Source of the DNA: an uncultured Candidatus Saccharibacteria bacterium
GTDB taxonomy: Bacteria; Patescibacteriota; Minisyncoccia; Phycocordibacterales; UBA9973
Assembly (NCBI GenBank): GCA_964606285.1
Contig: CAZSFP010000001.1
Span: forward strand, 133,376 to 197,375
Direction of reading: 5' to 3'
DNA: 64,000 bases
The number at the start of each line of letters is the position of its first letter. Within the stretch, counting starts at the first letter, position 1. Shown in pieces: positions 9,461 through 46,510 of the stretch. The notes beneath the pieces were generated by a model. That model worked only from the letters and a program-made list of their open reading frames with translations, did not search any database and was not told the origin of the DNA. Both the position numbers and the translations under genes were made by a program.

Positions 9461-10534
9461 TTACTTCACAATTCCCCCACCAAGACAAATTTCACCATCA
9501 TATATGACAACGGATTGTCCAGAAGAAATGAGTACAGGTTGTGAAAATGTAATATTGTCATTGGAGATAGTGCAATCAAAAAATTCTCCATGATAACGAA
9601 TTTGGGCTTGATACGATTTTGCAGGATCTGGAACTATTCGCTTATTCGCGCGAATAAGCGAATAGTTCGTCCGGGCTTTGGAAGATTCGTTTGGAGATAC
9701 ATGCGACACGGTAATCGTATTTTTTTCAATATCCTTTGCAATGACAAAATATCGAGGATCGTCACTTCCCTTTTTGGTAATCGTAAATCCGTGTCGTTCA
9801 CCAAGTGCAAAAAGAAATGCACCATCATGATGACCGATACTCTCGCCGGATTCATCAATAACATCTCCTGTCTTTGAAGAAATATAATGTTTGAGAAATG
9901 CCTTCATGTCGATTTCTCCGATAAAACACACACCCTGGCTATCCTTTTTTGTCGCAGTCGGCAAACGATATTTCTCTGCCAATTTCCGCACCTCTTTCTT
10001 TTCCAAATGACCTATAGGAAACAATATATGAGACAGATCATCTTGTGTTAGTGTCCAAAGAAAATAACTCTGATCCTTTGTGATATCCTTTCCCTTTTTT
10101 AATAAATATTTCCCAGAATCAATTTCATTTCTTGTATAATGCCCCGTGGCGATAAAATCTGCACCACGAGATTTTGCAAATTCCCAGAAAACACCGAATT
10201 TCACTTCTCGGTTGCACATAACATCCGGATTCGGTACGCGACCTGCACGATATTCGGCAATCATATAATCGGCAACACCCTTTTTATAAGCATCTTCAGC
10301 ATCACAATCAAGAAATGGGATTTGGAGATGGGCACAGACTCGCATTGCATCACGACGTTCATCACGCCATGTGCAGTCGATCCATTCAGGTGTCCAGGTG
10401 CGGATAAACACACCAACGACATCATATCCTTGATCTTTGAGGAGTGCCGCAGATACAGATGAATCAACACCACCTGAAACTCCGACAAACACTGTTTTTT
10501 TCTTTTGTTCCTGCGAAATCATATCCATAGTCAT
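9461..10534 (-). CDS. mnmA: tRNA-specific 2-thiouridylase MnmA
   Basis: PP-loop VGVSGGVDSSVSAALL; C-terminal VVIYDGEICLGGGIV typical of MnmA. Confidence 0.9.
   Translation of the reverse strand: MTMDMISQEQKKKTVFVGVSGGVDSSVSAALLKDQGYDVVGVFIRTWTPEWIDCTWRDERRDAMRVCAHLQIPFLDCDAEDAYKKGVADYMIAEYRAGRVPNPDVMCNREVKFGVFWEFAKSRGADFIATGHYTRNEIDSGKYLLKKGKDITKDQSYFLWTLTQDDLSHILFPIGHLEKKEVRKLAEKYRLPTATKKDSQGVCFIGEIDMKAFLKHYISSKTGDVIDESGESIGHHDGAFLFALGERHGFTITKKGSDDPRYFVIAKDIEKNTITVSHVSPNESSKARTNYSLIRANKRIVPDPAKSYQAQIRYHGEFFDCTISNDNITFSQPVLISSGQSVVIYDGEICLGGGIVK
9631..9668. repeat. 38-bp perfect palindrome GAACTATTCGCTTATTCGCGCGAATAAGCGAATAGTTC inside the mnmA coding sequence
   Basis: seen directly; shares the TATTCGCGCGAATA core with the 41516..41545 palindrome. 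Confidence 0.9.
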
Positions 10535-10588
10535 ACCATTATTTGTATAAAAATAAAAATCGCTTTCGTATAAAAGGTCAATATATGA

Positions 10589-11362
10589 CTATTCATGCGT
10601 AAGCGATTTTTCTGTTTCCAGATCTTCGTTTTTTTTCTTTTGTATTTCCAAAAGCAATATTTCTCCATGGATATATGCATTACAAATACTTTTTATACAT
10701 CCAATACCAGATTCCAATAGATACTCCTTTGGTATACTCACACCGGGAACATTGGGATATTTTTTCCCATGTTCGTGCAACCTCTTCAAGGATGACTTCA
10801 CCTGTAAGGGAATCTTGTCATGGCGAACTCCATGATCATCGATAAAATCTATCCAATAATCAACACCGTTCTTTTTATCATCACGGTCATTCGATCGATA
10901 AAATGTAAAGATTCGAAAAAATGGTGTGTACCCGGTTTCTGATTTATCTCCGAGTTTTTTAAGTTCGGGAGTAGTATCTACCAAGGCATTCTCACCTGCG
11001 GTTTTCATAAAAATGAGAAGTTCTTCTATATTTTTTTCAGATTCATATCCGTAGAGCTGCTCATTAATTTTTTTTTCCGCAAGATTCCATCCGACAATTA
11101 GATCATCGATTTTGAAAATATTACTTCCTTCGTTGATTCCATCAAAAGTACTTACTTTTTTCAATAAAATTCTTATTGTGTGATCTCCACGAAGTTTAGG
11201 AATAACATCATAAGGAACACTTTCATTTTCTTCATATTTTGAAAAATTTGAAATTTTCCCTTCTCTTTGCAAATAATCCAATTTTTTTGTAAATCTCTCC
11301 TGAAGTTGTGTATATATAATCTCATCTATAACATAGAATGTTACTAATGCTTTAATGTGCAT
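10589..11362 (-). CDS. hypothetical protein (257 aa)
   Basis: ORF between mnmA and the right inverted-repeat arm; segment WIDFIDDHGVRHDKIPLQVK is weakly reminiscent of a PD-(D/E)xK core (speculative). Confidence 0.45.
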   Translation of the reverse strand: MHIKALVTFYVIDEIIYTQLQERFTKKLDYLQREGKISNFSKYEENESVPYDVIPKLRGDHTIRILLKKVSTFDGINEGSNIFKIDDLIVGWNLAEKKINEQLYGYESEKNIEELLIFMKTAGENALVDTTPELKKLGDKSETGYTPFFRIFTFYRSNDRDDKKNGVDYWIDFIDDHGVRHDKIPLQVKSSLKRLHEHGKKYPNVPGVSIPKEYLLESGIGCIKSICNAYIHGEILLLEIQKKKNEDLETEKSLTHE

Positions 11363-40039: not shown

Positions 40040-40561
40040 TTAGAGTTTGCGAGAATCATATGCCCAATGAAGCAGTGCTTGTCGTTGGCGAGGACGGCAG
40101 TGTATATCGCCCGGTCGGCAGTGCGCCACGATTTGTCCGATATGGCGACGCATTGCCTTCCATCGCTTGATTTGTTTGCTGTCTTCTGCGGGAATTCTGC
40201 GACCCATATAATACCTGCAGTACCACTCGAACCATCCGCGAGGATCTTCTTTTGATATCCATCCTTTTGCTCGCCACACGGAAAGCGGTTGTGATGCATT
40301 CACACCAAAATAATTCAATTCTGCGAGATGTTTTGTTATACCCTTTGGTGCAAATTTTGCACGCGTAAACCAATCTGCAGGAAATTCCTTGACGCAATCA
40401 CGCATATAGACACCGCCGAACACTCCCAGTGCGAGCAGCTGCTTTGGAGTGAGATCAGGCTTGAATTCTGGATCAAACTGTTTCCCTATCGGTGCAACGC
40501 ATTCGTACCGATACCCTTTTTGCATTTTATTGTTGACGCGAATAATTCGTTTTGATGTCAT
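40040..40561 (-). CDS. hypothetical protein, atypically GC-rich (about 50% versus about 35% in the surroundings)
   Basis: 174-aa ORF (start set at MTSKRII); Trp/Arg-rich composition; no assignable domain. Confidence 0.45.
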   Translation of the reverse strand: MTSKRIIRVNNKMQKGYRYECVAPIGKQFDPEFKPDLTPKQLLALGVFGGVYMRDCVKEFPADWFTRAKFAPKGITKHLAELNYFGVNASQPLSVWRAKGWISKEDPRGWFEWYCRYYMGRRIPAEDSKQIKRWKAMRRHIGQIVAHCRPGDIHCRPRQRQALLHWAYDSRKL

Positions 40562-40599
40562 AAAAATAATTTTCAATATATCAATCCTTAAAAGAAACT

Positions 40600-40998
40600 C
40601 TAAAGATTTAAATATGTAATAGACAACTGGAGGACTGTCGCAAATGATACCCATCCAAGGTATGGGATATTTGCATACACGATCCAGTGTGCATGGGGCC
40701 ATATAGCAATCAGTGCCCAGATGAGCGTGCCGAGTACGAGGAGAATATCAATAGCAGCCAATAGATTGTTTTGAAGTCCAAACTGGAGTGGAGTGAAAGC
40801 AAAGTTGAAGATGAGATTGAGTACGAACGGCAATGCCACTATCCACGGAATCTGCTTTGTAAAAACTTTGTAAAATACTGTACCGAACGATAGCGCAATA
40901 ATCACATACAGTACCGTCCACACCGGCCCAAAAAGCCACGAAGGTGGTGCCCATGTCGGCTTGATAAGTTATGAGTACCAGTTGTATGTATTGTTCAT
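40600..40998 (-). pseudogene. tspO: TspO/MBR family protein interrupted by an in-frame TAA at codon 10
   Basis: ATG at 40998, then MNNTYNWYS-TAA(40969..40971)-LIKPTWAPPSWLFGPVWTVLY... continuing in the same frame into ORF 40600..40923; this matches the TspO N-terminal WY..L.KP.W.PP motif. Confidence 0.6.
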
Positions 40999-41016: not shown

Positions 41017-41445
41017 TTATCCTAGTAAAAACACAAACGACAAGAGAAGTCCCCACCAAGAAAGAAACGATGTGATGAAAGAAAACACGATTTTAGTTTG
41101 GAGATTTTGAGGAAGGAGCTCTGTCGGACGATTTTCACGTTCACGACGAATAAGTTCTGGACTCACGACAAATGAGAGAAAACATCCGTTCAGAATCATG
41201 ATTCCCATAACCACAAATTTCCAGAGAGCGATATGCATACCTGATGCAGCGAGAAGTATATGTCCTACTATGACAAGCAGCATTCCAATCCAGATAAGCG
41301 GTTTGGTAACCTTGTGTGTACGGATCGTTGCCTCGGTCCAGTATCCAGACTTGCGACCCAAAAATCCATGGAGATCAATAACGGTCACCGCCCCAAGTCC
41401 GATCACAAATCCTGCCATTGTTAAAAAAATTGAAAGTGTGTGCAT
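41017..41445 (-). CDS. hypothetical multi-pass membrane protein (142 aa)
   Basis: Four hydrophobic helices. Confidence 0.5.
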   Translation of the reverse strand: MHTLSIFLTMAGFVIGLGAVTVIDLHGFLGRKSGYWTEATIRTHKVTKPLIWIGMLLVIVGHILLAASGMHIALWKFVVMGIMILNGCFLSFVVSPELIRRERENRPTELLPQNLQTKIVFSFITSFLSWWGLLLSFVFLLG

Positions 41446-41604: not shown

Positions 41605-42522
41605 CTAACGGTAGGAAAGTTCTTTTTCGACACCGGCGGCAAAAGATCCGACGTTCGGGAGGCGGTCCTGGAGGAAGTACAATCCTTCGTTGAGTAATGT
41701 CAGATCTTTCCAGTGAATGATATCTTCTTTTGTTTTAAATTGAGAGAGAATACTTTTGCGATACCCAGAAATGTATTCAGTCCGTTCACTTGGTGACATG
41801 GTTCCTATCGCACCGATACTGAATTGCATAAATGGATCTGTCCGCATCAACGACACGACGTCGTCATCAGAAATTTCAGGAAAATGACTCACGTCGATCG
41901 ATGCACCAAAATCCACGAACCGCACGTCGCCGTCCGGTGTGAGAATGACATGGGATTTGCCAAAATCATTGGTTAACAACTGGTCATTGACCAAGATATT
42001 TTTTTCATGCAGTGCCTTGAGTGCTTTTCCAAATTTCTGTCCCAAGTCTTCCATAAACGCTGGTGTACAGATATCGGCTTCGAGATTGAGGAGCGGCGTG
42101 CCATCGACAAACTGTTCGTGCATCATGCCTTCCGGCGCCTTGTACTGCTCCGGTCCGATCCCCATGTCCGCCGCCGTCTGTGCAATAGATTTTTCCGCAA
42201 TTGATTCGAGTGGCTTGATGATCCGACTCTCATGTTCAAAAGACGCCTTGATGCCCGAACCGCGAGTCGGTGCCGACAATTTCGTTATCAACGGTTTCCC
42301 TTCCGGCATATCTGGCGCCTGTCGAATTCTTGATTCTAAATGTAAATACGAAAGATATGCGGCATATTCTTTGGGATATGTCGCCTTCAATTCTTCTGTG
42401 CTCATCGCAAGTAATGCTTCACGAACCGATTCGGACTGGATTCTCCCCTTGAAAAAATGCTCCGATCGGCCGAGTTGAGCATCCAATTCCTCCGGTGTTT
42501 TCGATTTTCCAAATGATTCCAT
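41605..42522 (-). CDS. protein-kinase-like fold protein (atypical or possibly inactive), GC-rich
   Basis: LHEKNILVNDQLL catalytic-loop-like segment followed by VDFGAS (DFG); about 50% GC. Confidence 0.4.
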   Translation of the reverse strand: MESFGKSKTPEELDAQLGRSEHFFKGRIQSESVREALLAMSTEELKATYPKEYAAYLSYLHLESRIRQAPDMPEGKPLITKLSAPTRGSGIKASFEHESRIIKPLESIAEKSIAQTAADMGIGPEQYKAPEGMMHEQFVDGTPLLNLEADICTPAFMEDLGQKFGKALKALHEKNILVNDQLLTNDFGKSHVILTPDGDVRFVDFGASIDVSHFPEISDDDVVSLMRTDPFMQFSIGAIGTMSPSERTEYISGYRKSILSQFKTKEDIIHWKDLTLLNEGLYFLQDRLPNVGSFAAGVEKELSYR

Positions 42523-42638
42523 AAGATTAGTATATCACTATCTTGATTCATCAAATATCCAATTTATGCATCTTTGCATGTGGTCATGAATTATTCACAT
42601 TTCCACAAGGACGGTCCTTGCGAACCACTTAATTGAAA

Positions 42639-42968
42639 TTAACCTGTATATTTCCCAGGCTTCAAATAGAATGTTATCCTACTGATACGCTCATTCTTTT
42701 TTAAGAATCCTAGTTTTGAAAAAACTCCAGTACCTAATCCTAAAACTTTTATACCTGCACCCACAGAACCATTAGAAGAGTCTTCAACGGTTACTGCAAT
42801 ATCAAATATTATTTTACCAGCATCACCGTTATATGGTCCCATTTGAAAATGTGCTTCTTTATCTAAACCTAGAGTACCGCCTTCAATTTTTGCAATTTCT
42901 TCATTTGCTGACCTTACTCCATTCCTTATGTCTAACAGTGATTGTTTTATAAATTCATCTAGTTTCAT
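42639..42968 (-). CDS. hypothetical protein (109 aa)
   Basis: ORF downstream of the PIN-like gene. Confidence 0.4.
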   Translation of the reverse strand: MKLDEFIKQSLLDIRNGVRSANEEIAKIEGGTLGLDKEAHFQMGPYNGDAGKIIFDIAVTVEDSSNGSVGAGIKVLGLGTGVFSKLGFLKKNERISRITFYLKPGKYTG

Positions 42969-43070
42969 ATTATTTATCTAAATACTTTTAATTATTCCAA
43001 AGTTTAGTGATTGTTTCTTTGATTTTTTGATCGTGTTCACAAGCACAGTTATTGCTAATCCGCTTGCGAA

Positions 43071-44123
43071 TCATGGAGATAGTCTCATTGACGTTAATCC
43101 ACCATTCTTACAGTTATCACATAATCCATTATCAGCAAAGACGGATGTTGGGCTATATACATAAGCTCTCAGACAATTCCTACAAGATCTTGCTGAAATT
43201 GATATAGGATTTACAGTTTGAAATGATTCGGACAATCTAATATCTGTATTCATGATCGAATTCCTTAAATCTGTAGTTTTTAGTACTGCAGGAGAATTAT
43301 TAAGGATAATGGGGTTCGCAGATTGTAATGAAACCAATGCGTTCTCATAATCTACACTGAAAACCCCTGAGGATTGATTCCTCTTCTCTTCAAATTGCTC
43401 AATGGTTTGTTTTTTGTATCCAGCAGAGAAATTCTTATTTAACATTTTCAGTGGATCGAAGTAATAACTAACATCTTTGAATAAAGTCTGAATACTAGTT
43501 GCTAGAATTAAATCATCTCGATTTTTAATCTTTGGATTTTCGGTAAAATCAAAAATATTACCGGTACTAAAAAATAATTCATAATCTTTTTTGTTTTCCA
43601 AGTATTTAACGACCGAAGCAATAATCAAACAGTCTGGCTGTATGTTTTCGTAATTTTTTTTCTCACCCGTAGATTTCTTATAAGGCTTACTTCCTTTTAG
43701 GAACATACAGTAGGCCTGAGTTAAAGCTTCAGGAGTTAGCCTTAAATCATCTCGGATAGTATTAGGGTGTTCAAAAATACTTCTAACATCTTTTTTAATT
43801 TTTTGAATCTCTTTTAAGGTAGTTTCCTTGCCTTGCTGAATTGATTTGGTTAAATTATCTTTAGCTTTTTTGCTTCCGATTGTATTGCTCTTTTGAATAA
43901 TTGTAACCAAATCATTCGCTTCATTATTTATCAACTCAATCTTTTCATTAAACTTTCTTTCAAATTCAAGTTCTATTATTTCCGGTAAAAGAAGTTTAAA
44001 TTTGTTTGCATTTAACAACTTGTTAATTTTTTCTAAAACATCATCACTATTAAATTCAAGATCTAAAAAACATAGGTGTATATAAATATTTGAGTCTATT
44101 AAAACAAATTTTTCTTTTTTCAT
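43071..44123 (-). CDS. PIN-like nuclease domain protein with C-terminal CxxC-x17-CxxC zinc ribbon
   Basis: N-terminal FVLIDSNIYIHL (first PIN acidic residue) and later DCLIIASV; C-terminal CRNC...CDNC. Confidence 0.55.
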   Translation of the reverse strand: MKKEKFVLIDSNIYIHLCFLDLEFNSDDVLEKINKLLNANKFKLLLPEIIELEFERKFNEKIELINNEANDLVTIIQKSNTIGSKKAKDNLTKSIQQGKETTLKEIQKIKKDVRSIFEHPNTIRDDLRLTPEALTQAYCMFLKGSKPYKKSTGEKKNYENIQPDCLIIASVVKYLENKKDYELFFSTGNIFDFTENPKIKNRDDLILATSIQTLFKDVSYYFDPLKMLNKNFSAGYKKQTIEQFEEKRNQSSGVFSVDYENALVSLQSANPIILNNSPAVLKTTDLRNSIMNTDIRLSESFQTVNPISISARSCRNCLRAYVYSPTSVFADNGLCDNCKNGGLTSMRLSP

Positions 44124-44130
44124 ATATTAA

Positions 44131-46149
44131 TTATAGATCTTCTAAAACTCTTACTACGACTGCTTGGACGATCATTTCTTCATTCTCAGTAAACTTCATG
44201 GGCTGGTGTTTTGGATTTGTGGAGCAAGGCTTTAATACAACAACCCCATTTTCTCTATAATACTCTTTTATTGTAGCATCCTCGCCAATAAGTGCGACAA
44301 CTCTATTCCCTATTTCTGGATGATAATTTTTACGGCACAAGACGAGGTCTCCATCATTTATCCCTGCTTTATTCATGGAATCTCCAGTAGTACGAAGTAC
44401 AAAATATTTTGAACCTTTAGAAATATATTCTACTGGAACATCTATCATTTCCTGAACGGTAGAGTCCGCAAACATCAATTCCCCGCAACCAGCCGAATCA
44501 AAAAGCGGAAGCTTTACCATCTGGCCAGCATATGGAGACTTTATTATTTTTGAAGTAATTTCTTTTTTAATGGATGTAACTTCTTTATTTATTATTTCAT
44601 TAAAATAATCTCTCAAACCTTGATCAACGATATAAATATAAGTTCCTTTTATACCGCGAGTTAACAATGTTTTATAAATATTTATTACATATCTTTCAAG
44701 TTCATTTGGGTCAGTAATGCCATTTCTACCATTTATATCAAAATATTTCTCACGATCAACTTTAAATTTTTTATTTACAGGGTCATATGAAAACTCAGGT
44801 CCAATAATAACCCCAACATAGTTCAAATCATAACCTTGAACTGTATGTATACAACCAACTTCATTTATAGCATTGGGTGAATTAACCCAGTCTTGAGCAA
44901 CGGAATTCCAGACCAATTTCAAGTCACCTATTTCAATATCATAATCACGAGTTCCCTTTGCGGTGTGCCATGGCCACGCATAACCAGCAACAACGCGGGC
45001 CAATTTATGCTTTTTGTCTTTTTCTTTAATTTCACTAACCATTTGCTCTGCATTATCGAATATTTTAAAATCATAATTTGAGAAACTTGTATTTTGGGGT
45101 ATTTTTAAATCAAAAATGTCTTCAATAAATTTAATGTACTCTTCGCCTGCTTCAACACGCATCTGAGAATTCAATTCATATTTTTTAGCATTTAATTTTC
45201 TAAAATCTTCAGGACGAATATCAGCTGGTTTTATACTTTGATTTTCATCATAAAAGAAAATTTGGTTTTTTGACGACTTCATAATCCAATCAAGTTGTGT
45301 GCCATTATTATCCAAACCAAGTCCCCGACTTACATTATCAAAAGCTCCATAACCCATAATACCTTTTCGTCTTTGTAGTCTATGTGATTCATCAACAATC
45401 AATAAGTCATATTTATCTTTTACAACATCATTTGGACCAATAACCATATTTGATTTTAATCCTTTTATTTTAGAAAAAACTCTAGCAATTGTTTTTCTAA
45501 GTGAGGCCATTGGTACAACAAGACCAATATTCATATTTTTTGTTTCTTCCTGTTCTTTGAGGTATTTAAAAAGATATGTAGCTAAAATTGTTTTACCTGT
45601 ACCCGGTTTACCATTTACAATAAAAGTATTGTATTCATTCTTTTTTATATCCTTAAAAATCTGTCTAGCGACAGTAAACTGATCTTCTGTTAGAGACTTG
45701 TATGGTGAGTATTTAAATAAATCACTATTTTTTAAATCCTCGAGAGTATTTTTTACTAAACCCATCTGTCGTAAATTTTCCCAAGCTATTTCAAACTTTG
45801 CTTTGTACTTTACCTTGTCGTAATAATTATGATTCTTTAAACCCCCATTACTATTCTGTAAAATAAACTTTTCGTCAGCAGAAATATACTGAATTAACCA
45901 AGACTCGATATCAAAAGCGGCAGAAATGTTAAATTCTTCATCAGTAATAATATGAATTTCTTTTAACTTCGCTCTTTCCGGATTTTCATAATGTTGCTTA
46001 CTTCGAAAATAAGCGTTCACTGTTTGACCAATATAAACTTCCTTCTTGTCTTCTAAAATGTAAACAACAGGCCAATTTTTACCAAATTTAAAATTCTTAA
46101 TTTGATCAAAATCCTCTCTATTAAATGGAAAAGTTTTTATTTCAGACAT
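44131..46149 (-). CDS. three-domain fusion: GIY-YIG nuclease + DUF2075-like SF1 helicase-type P-loop NTPase + LexA/UmuD-like S24 peptidase
   Basis: GIY-YIG: VVYILEDKKEVYIGQTVNAYFRSKQH...E. NTPase: Walker A GKPGTGKT, DExH-like LLIVDESHRL, IHTVQGYDLNYVGVII. S24: candidate Ala-Gly cleavage site (DSAG/CG) about 35 aa upstream of TGDSMNKAGINDGDLVL...TIKEY (Ser/Lys dyad). Confidence 0.7.
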   Translation of the reverse strand: MSEIKTFPFNREDFDQIKNFKFGKNWPVVYILEDKKEVYIGQTVNAYFRSKQHYENPERAKLKEIHIITDEEFNISAAFDIESWLIQYISADEKFILQNSNGGLKNHNYYDKVKYKAKFEIAWENLRQMGLVKNTLEDLKNSDLFKYSPYKSLTEDQFTVARQIFKDIKKNEYNTFIVNGKPGTGKTILATYLFKYLKEQEETKNMNIGLVVPMASLRKTIARVFSKIKGLKSNMVIGPNDVVKDKYDLLIVDESHRLQRRKGIMGYGAFDNVSRGLGLDNNGTQLDWIMKSSKNQIFFYDENQSIKPADIRPEDFRKLNAKKYELNSQMRVEAGEEYIKFIEDIFDLKIPQNTSFSNYDFKIFDNAEQMVSEIKEKDKKHKLARVVAGYAWPWHTAKGTRDYDIEIGDLKLVWNSVAQDWVNSPNAINEVGCIHTVQGYDLNYVGVIIGPEFSYDPVNKKFKVDREKYFDINGRNGITDPNELERYVINIYKTLLTRGIKGTYIYIVDQGLRDYFNEIINKEVTSIKKEITSKIIKSPYAGQMVKLPLFDSAGCGELMFADSTVQEMIDVPVEYISKGSKYFVLRTTGDSMNKAGINDGDLVLCRKNYHPEIGNRVVALIGEDATIKEYYRENGVVVLKPCSTNPKHQPMKFTENEEMIVQAVVVRVLEDL

Positions 46150-46150
46150 T

Positions 46151-46489
46151 TTATAATTCAGTATACTTACTATGTTTATTTTTAGATTTTTTTACAGGAT
46201 ATTTTTTATTATTCTCTTTCATCTTTAAAATAAAAGCTTTTTCAAGATCAACATTTAAATCATTAGACATTAACAAAACCCAGTACAAAACATCAGCAAG
46301 TTCTTTTGCTATTTCTTTTTTATTTTTCTTTACATGAAGTTCCATTTCCTCCAGATTTTTCCATTGAAAATGTTCTAATACTTCTGAGGATTCTAAACAT
46401 AGAGAAATAGCAAGATCTTTTGGATTATGAAATTGCTTCCAATTACGAGCATTTCTAAATTTAACAATTTGTTCTGTAAGCTTTTTCAT
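46151..46489 (-). CDS. DCTPP1/MazG-like all-alpha NTP pyrophosphohydrolase
   Basis: RNWKQFHNPKDLAISLCLESSEVLEHFQWK and ELADVLYWVLLMSNDLNVDLEKA...KYP match the dCTP pyrophosphatase 1 / YpjD motifs; its stop is separated by 1 nt from the next start. Confidence 0.75.
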   Translation of the reverse strand: MKKLTEQIVKFRNARNWKQFHNPKDLAISLCLESSEVLEHFQWKNLEEMELHVKKNKKEIAKELADVLYWVLLMSNDLNVDLEKAFILKMKENNKKYPVKKSKNKHSKYTEL

Positions 46490-46510
46490 AATTTTATCTT
46501 AAAAGTTCAT

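Follow-up and report, generated by a model that had tools for sequence, protein, structure and literature searches.

A conserved pyrophosphatase and nuclease-helicase gene pair in a low-GC islet behind lysS of a Candidatus Saccharibacteria genome: a candidate Nhi-like defence cassette

Introduction

What is encoded by the three closely spaced genes that follow lysS in the genome of an uncultured Candidatus Saccharibacteria bacterium, and do they belong together? The window analysed here is a stretch of 64,000 nucleotides (nt) from contig CAZSFP010000001.1 (assembly GCA_964606285.1). The genes specify a MazG-like all-alpha nucleoside triphosphate (NTP) pyrophosphatase, a fusion of a GIY-YIG nuclease with a DUF2075 helicase and a LexA-type S24 domain, and a PIN-like nuclease. 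An earlier reading of the same DNA (the original prediction) had proposed that all three act as one functional module for nucleotide depletion and nuclease attack. The list of open reading frames (ORFs) and a direct reading of the sequence agree with its description of three minus-strand genes. The TAA stop codon of the MazG-like gene is separated by 1 nt from the ATG of the fusion gene, whose TAA is followed after 7 nt (ttaatat) by the ATG of the PIN-like gene. Between the lysS stop codon and the MazG-like ATG there are 21 nt. At about 30% guanine-cytosine (GC) content, uninterrupted frames of 672 and 350 codons greatly exceed what chance would give. The proposed domain identities (a DCTPP1-like MazG protein, a GIY-YIG/NTPase/S24 fusion and a PIN protein with a zinc ribbon) are likewise borne out, by family profiles and conserved residues.

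DUF2075 is among the abortive-infection Pfam families listed by the Sorek laboratory, and proteins built around it include known anti-phage enzymes. Nhi (SERP2475 of Staphylococcus epidermidis) joins a PD-(D/E)xK nuclease to a DUF2075 helicase in a single gene and limits the accumulation of phage DNA (Bari et al. 2022), and one Nhi homologue is toxic on expression. Nhi-like (SG141 of Bacillus cereus) has a DUF2075 core and validated anti-phage activity (Millman et al. 2022). Table S2 of the latter study also contains a candidate listed as 'Pyrophosphatase', which was among those cloned and tested and was never given a system name or characterised. The comparisons presented here identify the first two genes of the block as a conserved cassette, a candidate defence system, and place the third gene outside it.

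Results

The pyrophosphatase and fusion genes travel as a pair

Relatives of the fusion protein are encoded at 80 loci found in a scan of 185,579 species genomes, and all proteins of the window were compared to these loci by tblastn. Eighteen of the loci are from Patescibacteria (62–82% identity) and about 60 from Bacteroidota (about 40% full-length identity). A MazG-like gene is found immediately upstream of the fusion homologue at every one of the 80, with a 4-nt ATGA overlap between the two genes in essentially all Bacteroidota loci and a gap of 0–3 nt in Patescibacteria. Translational coupling of the two genes is the usual arrangement. The same pair occurs on megaplasmids of the Bacillus cereus group (35% identity, no S24 domain), on a plasmid of the archaeon Halalkalicoccus jeotgali (genes 5 nt apart), in four further metagenome contexts in which the fusion is 83–89% identical to that of the window, and in five IMG/VR contigs. 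Two of these contigs have the inverted gene order, with an S24-less fusion first and the MazG-like gene 8 nt later (L102:3520-5363 and L103:3188-5031), and adjacency is kept there too. The cassette contexts number about 92 in total, drawn from Patescibacteria, Bacteroidota, Bacillus megaplasmids, the haloarchaeal plasmid, and metagenome and IMG/VR contigs, and a MazG-like homologue adjoins the fusion homologue in all of them. This adjacency suggests a two-gene unit, and strong joint selection on the pair is evident in three bacterial phyla and on an archaeal plasmid.

The association is asymmetric. This DUF2075 clade is always accompanied by a MazG-like gene, and the reverse does not hold, because Listeria, Polaromonas and plasmid-borne Paenibacillus copies of the MazG-like family have other neighbours; the Listeria member adjoins ribonucleotide reductase genes. 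Comparison of neighbourhoods, which the original prediction had put forward as its own means of refutation, thus retains its first two genes as a conserved unit and removes the third: the PIN-like gene accompanies the cassette at none of the 80 genome loci and in none of the roughly 92 contexts, including relatives with an 83–89% identical fusion. Nor is lysS adjacent to the cassette in any of these loci or contexts.

The distribution of the cassette is patchy. It is carried on megaplasmids and is also present in many cultured Flavobacteriia chromosomes. The fusion is 68–89% identical across metagenome-assembled genomes of different Patescibacteria lineages, which suggests recent transfer. The possibility that the cassette is a typical phage gene was considered and rejected: five IMG/VR contigs carry it, mostly at or near the contig end, and matches to GenBank phages are weak.

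Several individual loci have additional features. At 12 of about 57 Bacteroidota loci (L026, L033, L037, L038, L040, L046, L049, L058, L062, L064, L068 and L073), a gene for a protein of 556–657 residues immediately precedes the MazG-like gene on the same strand and runs up to its start (for example L033:3657-5624); the gene is absent from the window. Three members of this family scanned with Pfam have TPR repeats in the N-terminal part and no family assignment for the C-terminal half, and the protein may be a third component in that sub-clade, perhaps a sensor. On plasmid p1 of Bacillus sp. PGP15 (L081:2036-6662), the MazG-like gene is followed by a gene for a 686-residue fusion of GIY-YIG to a KAP-family P-loop NTPase and then by a GIY-YIG/DUF2075 gene, and an HNH endonuclease gene and a small hypothetical gene lie upstream of the MazG-like gene. 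This gene order indicates that the pyrophosphatase also pairs with another GIY-YIG NTPase. In Sediminicola sp. 1XM1-17 (L029:3546-5381), a second, divergent DUF2075 protein of 612 residues with no GIY-YIG call is encoded about 250 nt upstream of the cassette. At a further locus, copies of a direct repeat of about 430 nt (L083:5081-5514 and 10280-10713; 92% and 75% identity) flank a 5.2-kb islet with a cassette whose fusion is 87% identical to that of the window. The repeat includes a stand-alone GIY-YIG gene of 79 residues, which has no homologue in the window, and hints at movement or duplication of the islet.

The fusion protein combines a GIY-YIG nuclease with a Schlafen-type helicase core

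The fusion protein has more than 7,800 homologues, and the best 120 of these are 68–100% identical to it with the same architecture. An AlphaFold model (mean predicted local distance difference test score 83, predicted template modelling score 0.67) resolves three domains, with a disordered linker at residues 523–541. In the N-terminal domain, all 33 sequences compared, from three phyla, share residues Y30, Y39, G41, R49, H53, E82 and N99, which follow an I-TevI-like spacing. The I-TevI catalytic domain is the top PDB match of a profile of this domain (E 0.0034), followed by UvrC, and the modelled region has the beta-beta-alpha-beta-alpha topology. The match of the window protein to Pfam PF01541 (E 0.005, 17.5 bits) is below the cut-off of 22.6 bits; a precomputed match to the same family is carried by most Bacteroidota fusion homologues, and the GIY-YIG/KAP protein of the Bacillus plasmid is above the cut-off.

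The central domain matches PF09848 (SLFN-g3_helicase/DUF2075) with an E-value of 2.7e-70 and forms a superfamily 1 (SF1) helicase core, with Walker A (GKPGTGKT) and Walker B (LLIVDESHR) motifs. The motifs GTGKT, DE.HRL, QMR and IHT.QGYDLNY are invariant across sets of 73 and 59 sequences. Foldseek aligns the modelled helicase with the helicase domains of SLFN11 and SLFN14 (7ZEL and 9JR9), and with RecD2, Dda and Upf1. The original prediction had also looked to existing tools for assignment to a described system; with PADLOC models, the fusion has only partial matches at residues 82–380, to Nhi (5e-17) and to AbiO (8e-16).

The S24 domain is predicted to retain self-cleavage

The C-terminal domain is assigned to Pfam Peptidase_S24 (2.2e-23), and to NCBIfam lexA with an E-value of 3e-21 over LexA positions 79–199, at a score (75.8) below the equivalog cut-off of 110.95. 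The catalytic Ser and Lys, in the G[DE]SMN and T.K.Y motifs respectively, are present in all 73 S24 sequences compared. Alignment by eye of LPLFDSAGCGELMF of the fusion to LPLVGRVAAGEPLL of Escherichia coli LexA places C555-G556 at LexA A84-G85. The scissile position is thus Cys-Gly in the window, as in UmuD, and Ala-Ala-Gly in Bacteroidota. Foldseek superposes the domain on LexA C-terminal domains (1JHE, 8GMS and 8S7G), RecA-bound LexA included, with target-normalised template-modelling scores of 0.86–0.88 and root-mean-square deviations of 2.1–2.4 Å. Since the dyad and the aligned scissile site are both in place, the predicted domain retains all features needed for self-cleavage.

The fusion was also considered as a LexA repressor proper. 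This was rejected, as the N-terminal 540 residues consist of the GIY-YIG and helicase domains with no winged helix-turn-helix (HTH), and the lexA score is below the equivalog cut-off. Because some family members lack the S24 domain, it is an accessory regulatory module and not part of the cassette core; no separate S24 gene was found near the S24-less variants.

The partner gene encodes a DCTPP1-like pyrophosphatase

The MazG-like protein matches Pfam PF12643 (1.1e-15; 58.1 bits against a cut-off of 27). Among solved structures, it is closest to the pyrophosphatase 4QGP (7e-18) and to dCTP pyrophosphatase 1 of mouse and human (1.9e-16, about 38% identity). The metal-binding motif ExxExxE...ExxD and the DCTPP1-like C-terminal motif KYP..K.KG...KY..L are kept in at least 90% of 80 aligned MazG-like sequences. 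Similarity to DCTPP1 indicates that the substrate is probably deoxycytidine triphosphate (dCTP) or 5-modified dCTPs. Nucleotide depletion, as originally suggested, is one possible role of the enzyme. With this protein included, catalytic residues are invariant in all four enzymatic modules.

The PIN gene occupies a variable slot

The slot after the fusion gene varies in size, strand and family: 57 Pfam families are represented among the 80 neighbours, with no recurrent partner. It often holds defence or toxin-antitoxin genes, such as Shedu SduA (L088), an AAA_15/AAA_21 ATPase (L087) and Abi_alpha (L003), and further neighbours of the cassette include SoFic, AriA/PtuA/GajA-like AAA_15 ATPases, SocA/Panacea and HigB. 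In Fluviicola (L044:7688-9247), a gene for a Dcm C-5 cytosine DNA methyltransferase shares 8 nt with the end of an S24-less fusion gene, which deserves mention because the partner pyrophosphatase resembles DCTPP1, an enzyme that acts on 5-modified dCTPs.

In the window, the slot is filled by the PIN-like gene, an independent passenger outside the conserved cassette. The only match of its product is Pfam PIN_12 (PF16289; 1e-10, 42.7 bits against a cut-off of 32), with none in PADLOC, NCBIfam or PHROGs. A search of 5.8 billion proteins found five other homologues. Their contexts are beside a type III restriction-modification-like gene pair, between ftsW and a permease gene, and near an SNase gene; in none of the homologue contexts is a MazG or DUF2075 gene nearby. 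Residues D10, E48, E53, D164 and D192, together with the zinc-ribbon cysteines C314, C317, C335 and C338, are invariant in six homologues. The constancy of the acidic residues and of the four-Cys ribbon makes it probable that the gene specifies a functional, independent nuclease.

The cassette lies in a low-GC islet

The features of the locus are collected in Table 1. GC content is about 0.29 over the islet (local values 0.25–0.34 at about 42600–46500), versus 0.47–0.49 in lysS and about 0.48 in the next gene. In most of 16 other hosts sampled, the cassette is likewise below its flanks in GC. The small ORF that ends the islet has a local GC of about 0.32, no match in Pfam, PADLOC, NCBIfam or PHROGs, and no homologue in any fetched cassette locus. 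A 109-residue ORF that directly follows the 87%-identical fusion gene at L083 was considered as a counterpart and rejected, as there is no detectable similarity between the two.

No sigma-70-like promoter or terminator-like site was found between lysS and the block in a promoter and terminator scan; promoter-like sites are fewer in the scanned sequence than in shuffled sequence, and no terminator is convincing. With the 21-nt gap, the lack of a promoter-like site suggests that the whole islet is probably transcribed in the source genome by read-through from lysS. At other loci, an intergenic region of its own precedes the cassette, as at L083 with 137 nt. A search for direct or inverted repeats or att sites flanking the islet gave only short, low-identity chance matches.

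Table 1. Coordinates of the islet, its genes and the predicted domains and catalytic sites of the fusion protein (window positions)
Feature	Position	Strand	Remarks
MazG-like, DCTPP1-like all-alpha NTP pyrophosphatase gene (cassette gene 1)	46151..46489	-	112 residues, intact ORF
GIY-YIG/DUF2075 helicase/S24 fusion gene (cassette gene 2)	44131..46149	-	672 residues, intact ORF
GIY-YIG nuclease domain	45835..46077	-	about residues 25-105
DUF2075/SLFN-g3 SF1 helicase core	44623..45627	-	residues 175-509
LexA/UmuD-type S24 domain	44143..44520	-	residues 544-669
Predicted scissile bond C555-G556	44482-44487	-	alignment to LexA
Predicted catalytic Ser591	44377-44379	-	G[DE]SMN motif
Predicted catalytic Lys628	44266-44268	-	T.K.Y motif
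PIN_12 nuclease gene with C-terminal four-Cys zinc ribbon	43071..44123	-	350 residues, intact ORF
Small ORF, no family match	42639..42968	-	109 residues, last islet gene, 102 nt past the PIN stop codon
Low-GC accessory islet, directly 3' of the lysS stop codon	42600..46510		GC profile, about 3.9 kb

Three further ORFs on the minus strand lie beyond the islet. A 305-residue frame immediately past it (41605-42522) has a host-like GC of about 0.48, and a 220-residue frame (40040-40702) a GC of about 0.42–0.48; both are without a Pfam or NCBIfam match. The third (41017-41445) encodes a predicted membrane protein of 142 residues with no Pfam family. Homologues that are 54–64% identical to it lie within about 2 kb of the cassette, on either side, in three Patescibacteria loci (L011, L014 and L017), and may represent shared islet cargo or a shared insertion neighbourhood.

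Discussion

The region is best explained as a small, horizontally acquired defence islet after lysS, the core of which is a mobile, Nhi-like candidate two-gene defence cassette; our confidence in this explanation somewhat outweighs our doubt. A role in defence is proposed because the fusion has the DUF2075 core of the validated Nhi and Nhi-like systems, defence genes recur as neighbours, the GC content is low, and a related pair was among the candidates tested by Millman et al. (2022). The accessory, defence-like character that the original prediction had given to the block is likewise supported.

The cassette could work as follows. The helicase would load on foreign DNA or replication intermediates, and the GIY-YIG domain would cut them, as Nhi does. 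The S24 domain would keep the enzyme dimeric or autoinhibited; by analogy to LexA and UmuD, it most plausibly makes the enzyme respond to RecA filaments on single-stranded DNA (ssDNA), which arise from phage replication or DNA damage, by self-cleavage at Cys555-Gly556. Cleavage would free the 555-residue catalytic part from the dimerising domain and switch its activity. The pyrophosphatase would hydrolyse dCTP or 5-modified dCTPs, and in this way either starve phage replication or block the building of nuclease-resistant modified phage DNA. The PIN_12/zinc-ribbon gene and the 109-residue ORF would be separate cargo of the same islet.

In its fullest form, the proposal is that the MazG-like gene and the GIY-YIG/DUF2075(+S24) gene constitute a widespread candidate immune system of Patescibacteria, Bacteroidota, Bacillota and haloarchaea. 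Its effector would be switched by LexA-type, RecA-stimulated self-proteolysis and would be the first to read the SOS signal by cutting itself, and its DCTPP1-like partner would sanitise the modified dCTP of phages or deplete dCTP such that invading DNA stays cleavable. It is doubtful that all of these parts hold, and this version is advanced tentatively.

Several observations weigh against the favoured explanation. The pair SG192 of Bacillus firmus LK28, a 98-residue MazG-like protein with a 643-residue DUF2075 protein, is scored 'x', no defence observed, and for SG193 of B. thuringiensis Lr3/2 the entry is 'Cloning failed' (Millman et al. 2022). The PADLOC Nhi model is matched only at profile positions 114–376 of 470, and the MazG-like protein has no PADLOC match. 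The S24 domain is absent from L017, L044, L048, L059, L065, L072, the Bacillus loci and L102/L103. Among the downstream neighbours, many genes have ordinary metabolic functions. Lastly, the combination of an S24 domain with a house-cleaning NTPase fits a role in DNA damage or repair equally well.

This last point leads to the first rival explanation, in which the cassette serves DNA-damage and nucleotide-pool sanitation: the pyrophosphatase would clear damaged or modified dCTP, the GIY-YIG helicase would excise or process lesions, and the S24 domain would tie the activity of this helicase to the SOS signal as in UmuD. DCTPP1 and MazG enzymes, to which the PDB relatives of the window protein belong, are classical house-cleaning enzymes. 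The GIY-YIG fold is that of the UvrC nuclease, the S24 domain resembles those of LexA and UmuD and has every catalytic feature, the cassette resides in many cultured Flavobacteriia chromosomes, and the sole defence test of a related pair was negative. Such a role, however, fits poorly with a patchy distribution, a GC content below the flanks in most hosts, carriage on megaplasmids, the 68–89% identity across Patescibacteria lineages that suggests recent transfer, and the repeated presence of defence or toxin-antitoxin genes as neighbours; moreover, Nhi and Nhi-like, its closest relatives to have been characterised, act against phages. We judge this explanation unlikely.

A toxin-antitoxin or abortive-infection arrangement, in which the nuclease-helicase is a toxin, the pyrophosphatase an enzymatic antidote (for example, one that destroys an activating nucleotide) and S24 cleavage the event that frees the toxin, would account for the small first gene translationally coupled to a large nuclease gene, which is the usual antitoxin-toxin order, and for adjacency of the pair even in inverted order. 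The failed cloning of SG193 and the toxicity of one Nhi homologue point the same way. The catalytic motif of the pyrophosphatase, however, resembles dCTP-specific DCTPP1 and not alarmone hydrolases, and the arrangement overlaps the explanation favoured here, with which it is compatible. As a separate account it seems quite improbable.

The three-gene module of the original prediction, with depletion of deoxynucleotides and two nucleases in one operon-level system, has in its favour the 1- and 7-nt gaps, the common strand and the common low GC, and PIN and GIY-YIG nucleases are indeed common defence effectors. It did not survive comparison with other genomes, in which the PIN-like gene is missing from all of the other contexts, even those with 83–89% identical fusions, its five homologues have no MazG or DUF2075 neighbour, and the slot that it occupies has no recurrent partner; a module of this composition is very improbable. 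Hardly any credence can be given to the remaining alternative, that a housekeeping MazG-like gene is transcribed together with lysS and the remainder is unrelated cargo, which would suit the 21-nt gap without a promoter-like site and the housekeeping nature of some MazG-like members, such as that beside the Listeria ribonucleotide reductase genes, but is contradicted by the absence of lysS from all other contexts, by a GC content of the gene that is that of the islet and not of lysS, and by its constant position beside a DUF2075 gene at cassette loci.

If the cassette is a defence system as favoured above, a very widely distributed two-gene family would be added to the Nhi/DUF2075 class, and another recognisable immune module would be available for the small genomes of Patescibacteria. 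A LexA-type self-cleaving domain on an effector would be a new control logic that couples the sensing of DNA damage or phage replication to a nuclease. An obligatory DCTPP1-like partner would tie nucleotide-pool editing to DNA targeting, and bears on how cytosine-modified phages are countered. The helicase is a prokaryotic counterpart of the Schlafen group-3 helicase, and its regulation could inform the replication-stress response of the SLFN11 type. Given the negative result of SG192, the family is at present unassigned. It is open to direct tests through orthologues in culturable strains such as Flavobacterium swingsii DSM 21789 and Ulvibacter antarcticus DSM 23424.

Comparison with known systems

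The fusion shares its helicase domain with the eukaryotic Schlafen group 3 proteins SLFN11 and SLFN14, as judged by the Pfam family SLFN-g3_helicase and by Foldseek. SLFN11 responds to replication stress and ssDNA. Schlafens carry an N-terminal RNase module where the fusion carries GIY-YIG, and the S24 domain and pyrophosphatase partner of the cassette are absent from them. The pyrophosphatase has its family, metal-binding motif and C-terminal tail in common with DCTPP1 (RS21-C6) and the integron-borne iMazG; unlike these, the cassette enzyme is always encoded beside a nuclease-helicase in a mobile unit. The Ser-Lys dyad, the Cys-Gly or Ala-Gly scissile site and the fold of the S24 domain are common to LexA, UmuD and phage CI. 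In those proteins its partner is an HTH DNA-binding domain or a polymerase-accessory tail, whereas in the window it forms the C-terminus of a 540-residue nuclease-helicase, so that cleavage would release an enzyme and not inactivate a repressor.

The closest systems are those built on DUF2075. Nhi and Nhi-like have an N-terminal nuclease fused to a DUF2075/SF1 helicase core, as does the fusion of the window. The nuclease of Nhi is of the PD-(D/E)xK type and not GIY-YIG, Nhi is without an S24 domain, and it works as a single gene, whereas the cassette type of the window always has an adjacent MazG-like partner. The likeness to Nhi is confined to the first half of the helicase; against the first 399 residues of SG141, only the Walker A region of the fusion aligns (E 0.001). 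The candidate SG192 has the same gene pair as the window, with a MazG-like gene (product of about 100 residues) adjoining a DUF2075 gene. Its 'pyrophosphatase' is 47% identical to the MazG-like protein of the window, and the N-terminal helicase cores of the two DUF2075 proteins are 24% identical (E 3e-11). Where the window fusion carries GIY-YIG and S24 domains, the DUF2075 protein of SG192 has an N-terminus of PD-(D/E)xK-like type and lacks S24. In the literature that could be searched, neither a DUF2075-MazG pair beyond the Millman candidate nor an S24-fused DUF2075 protein was found described. By its predicted domains, the cassette belongs with the Nhi/DUF2075 nuclease-helicases and with the previously screened, unvalidated pyrophosphatase and DUF2075 candidate, and the fusion of an S24 domain to a DUF2075 protein is its truly new, testable feature.

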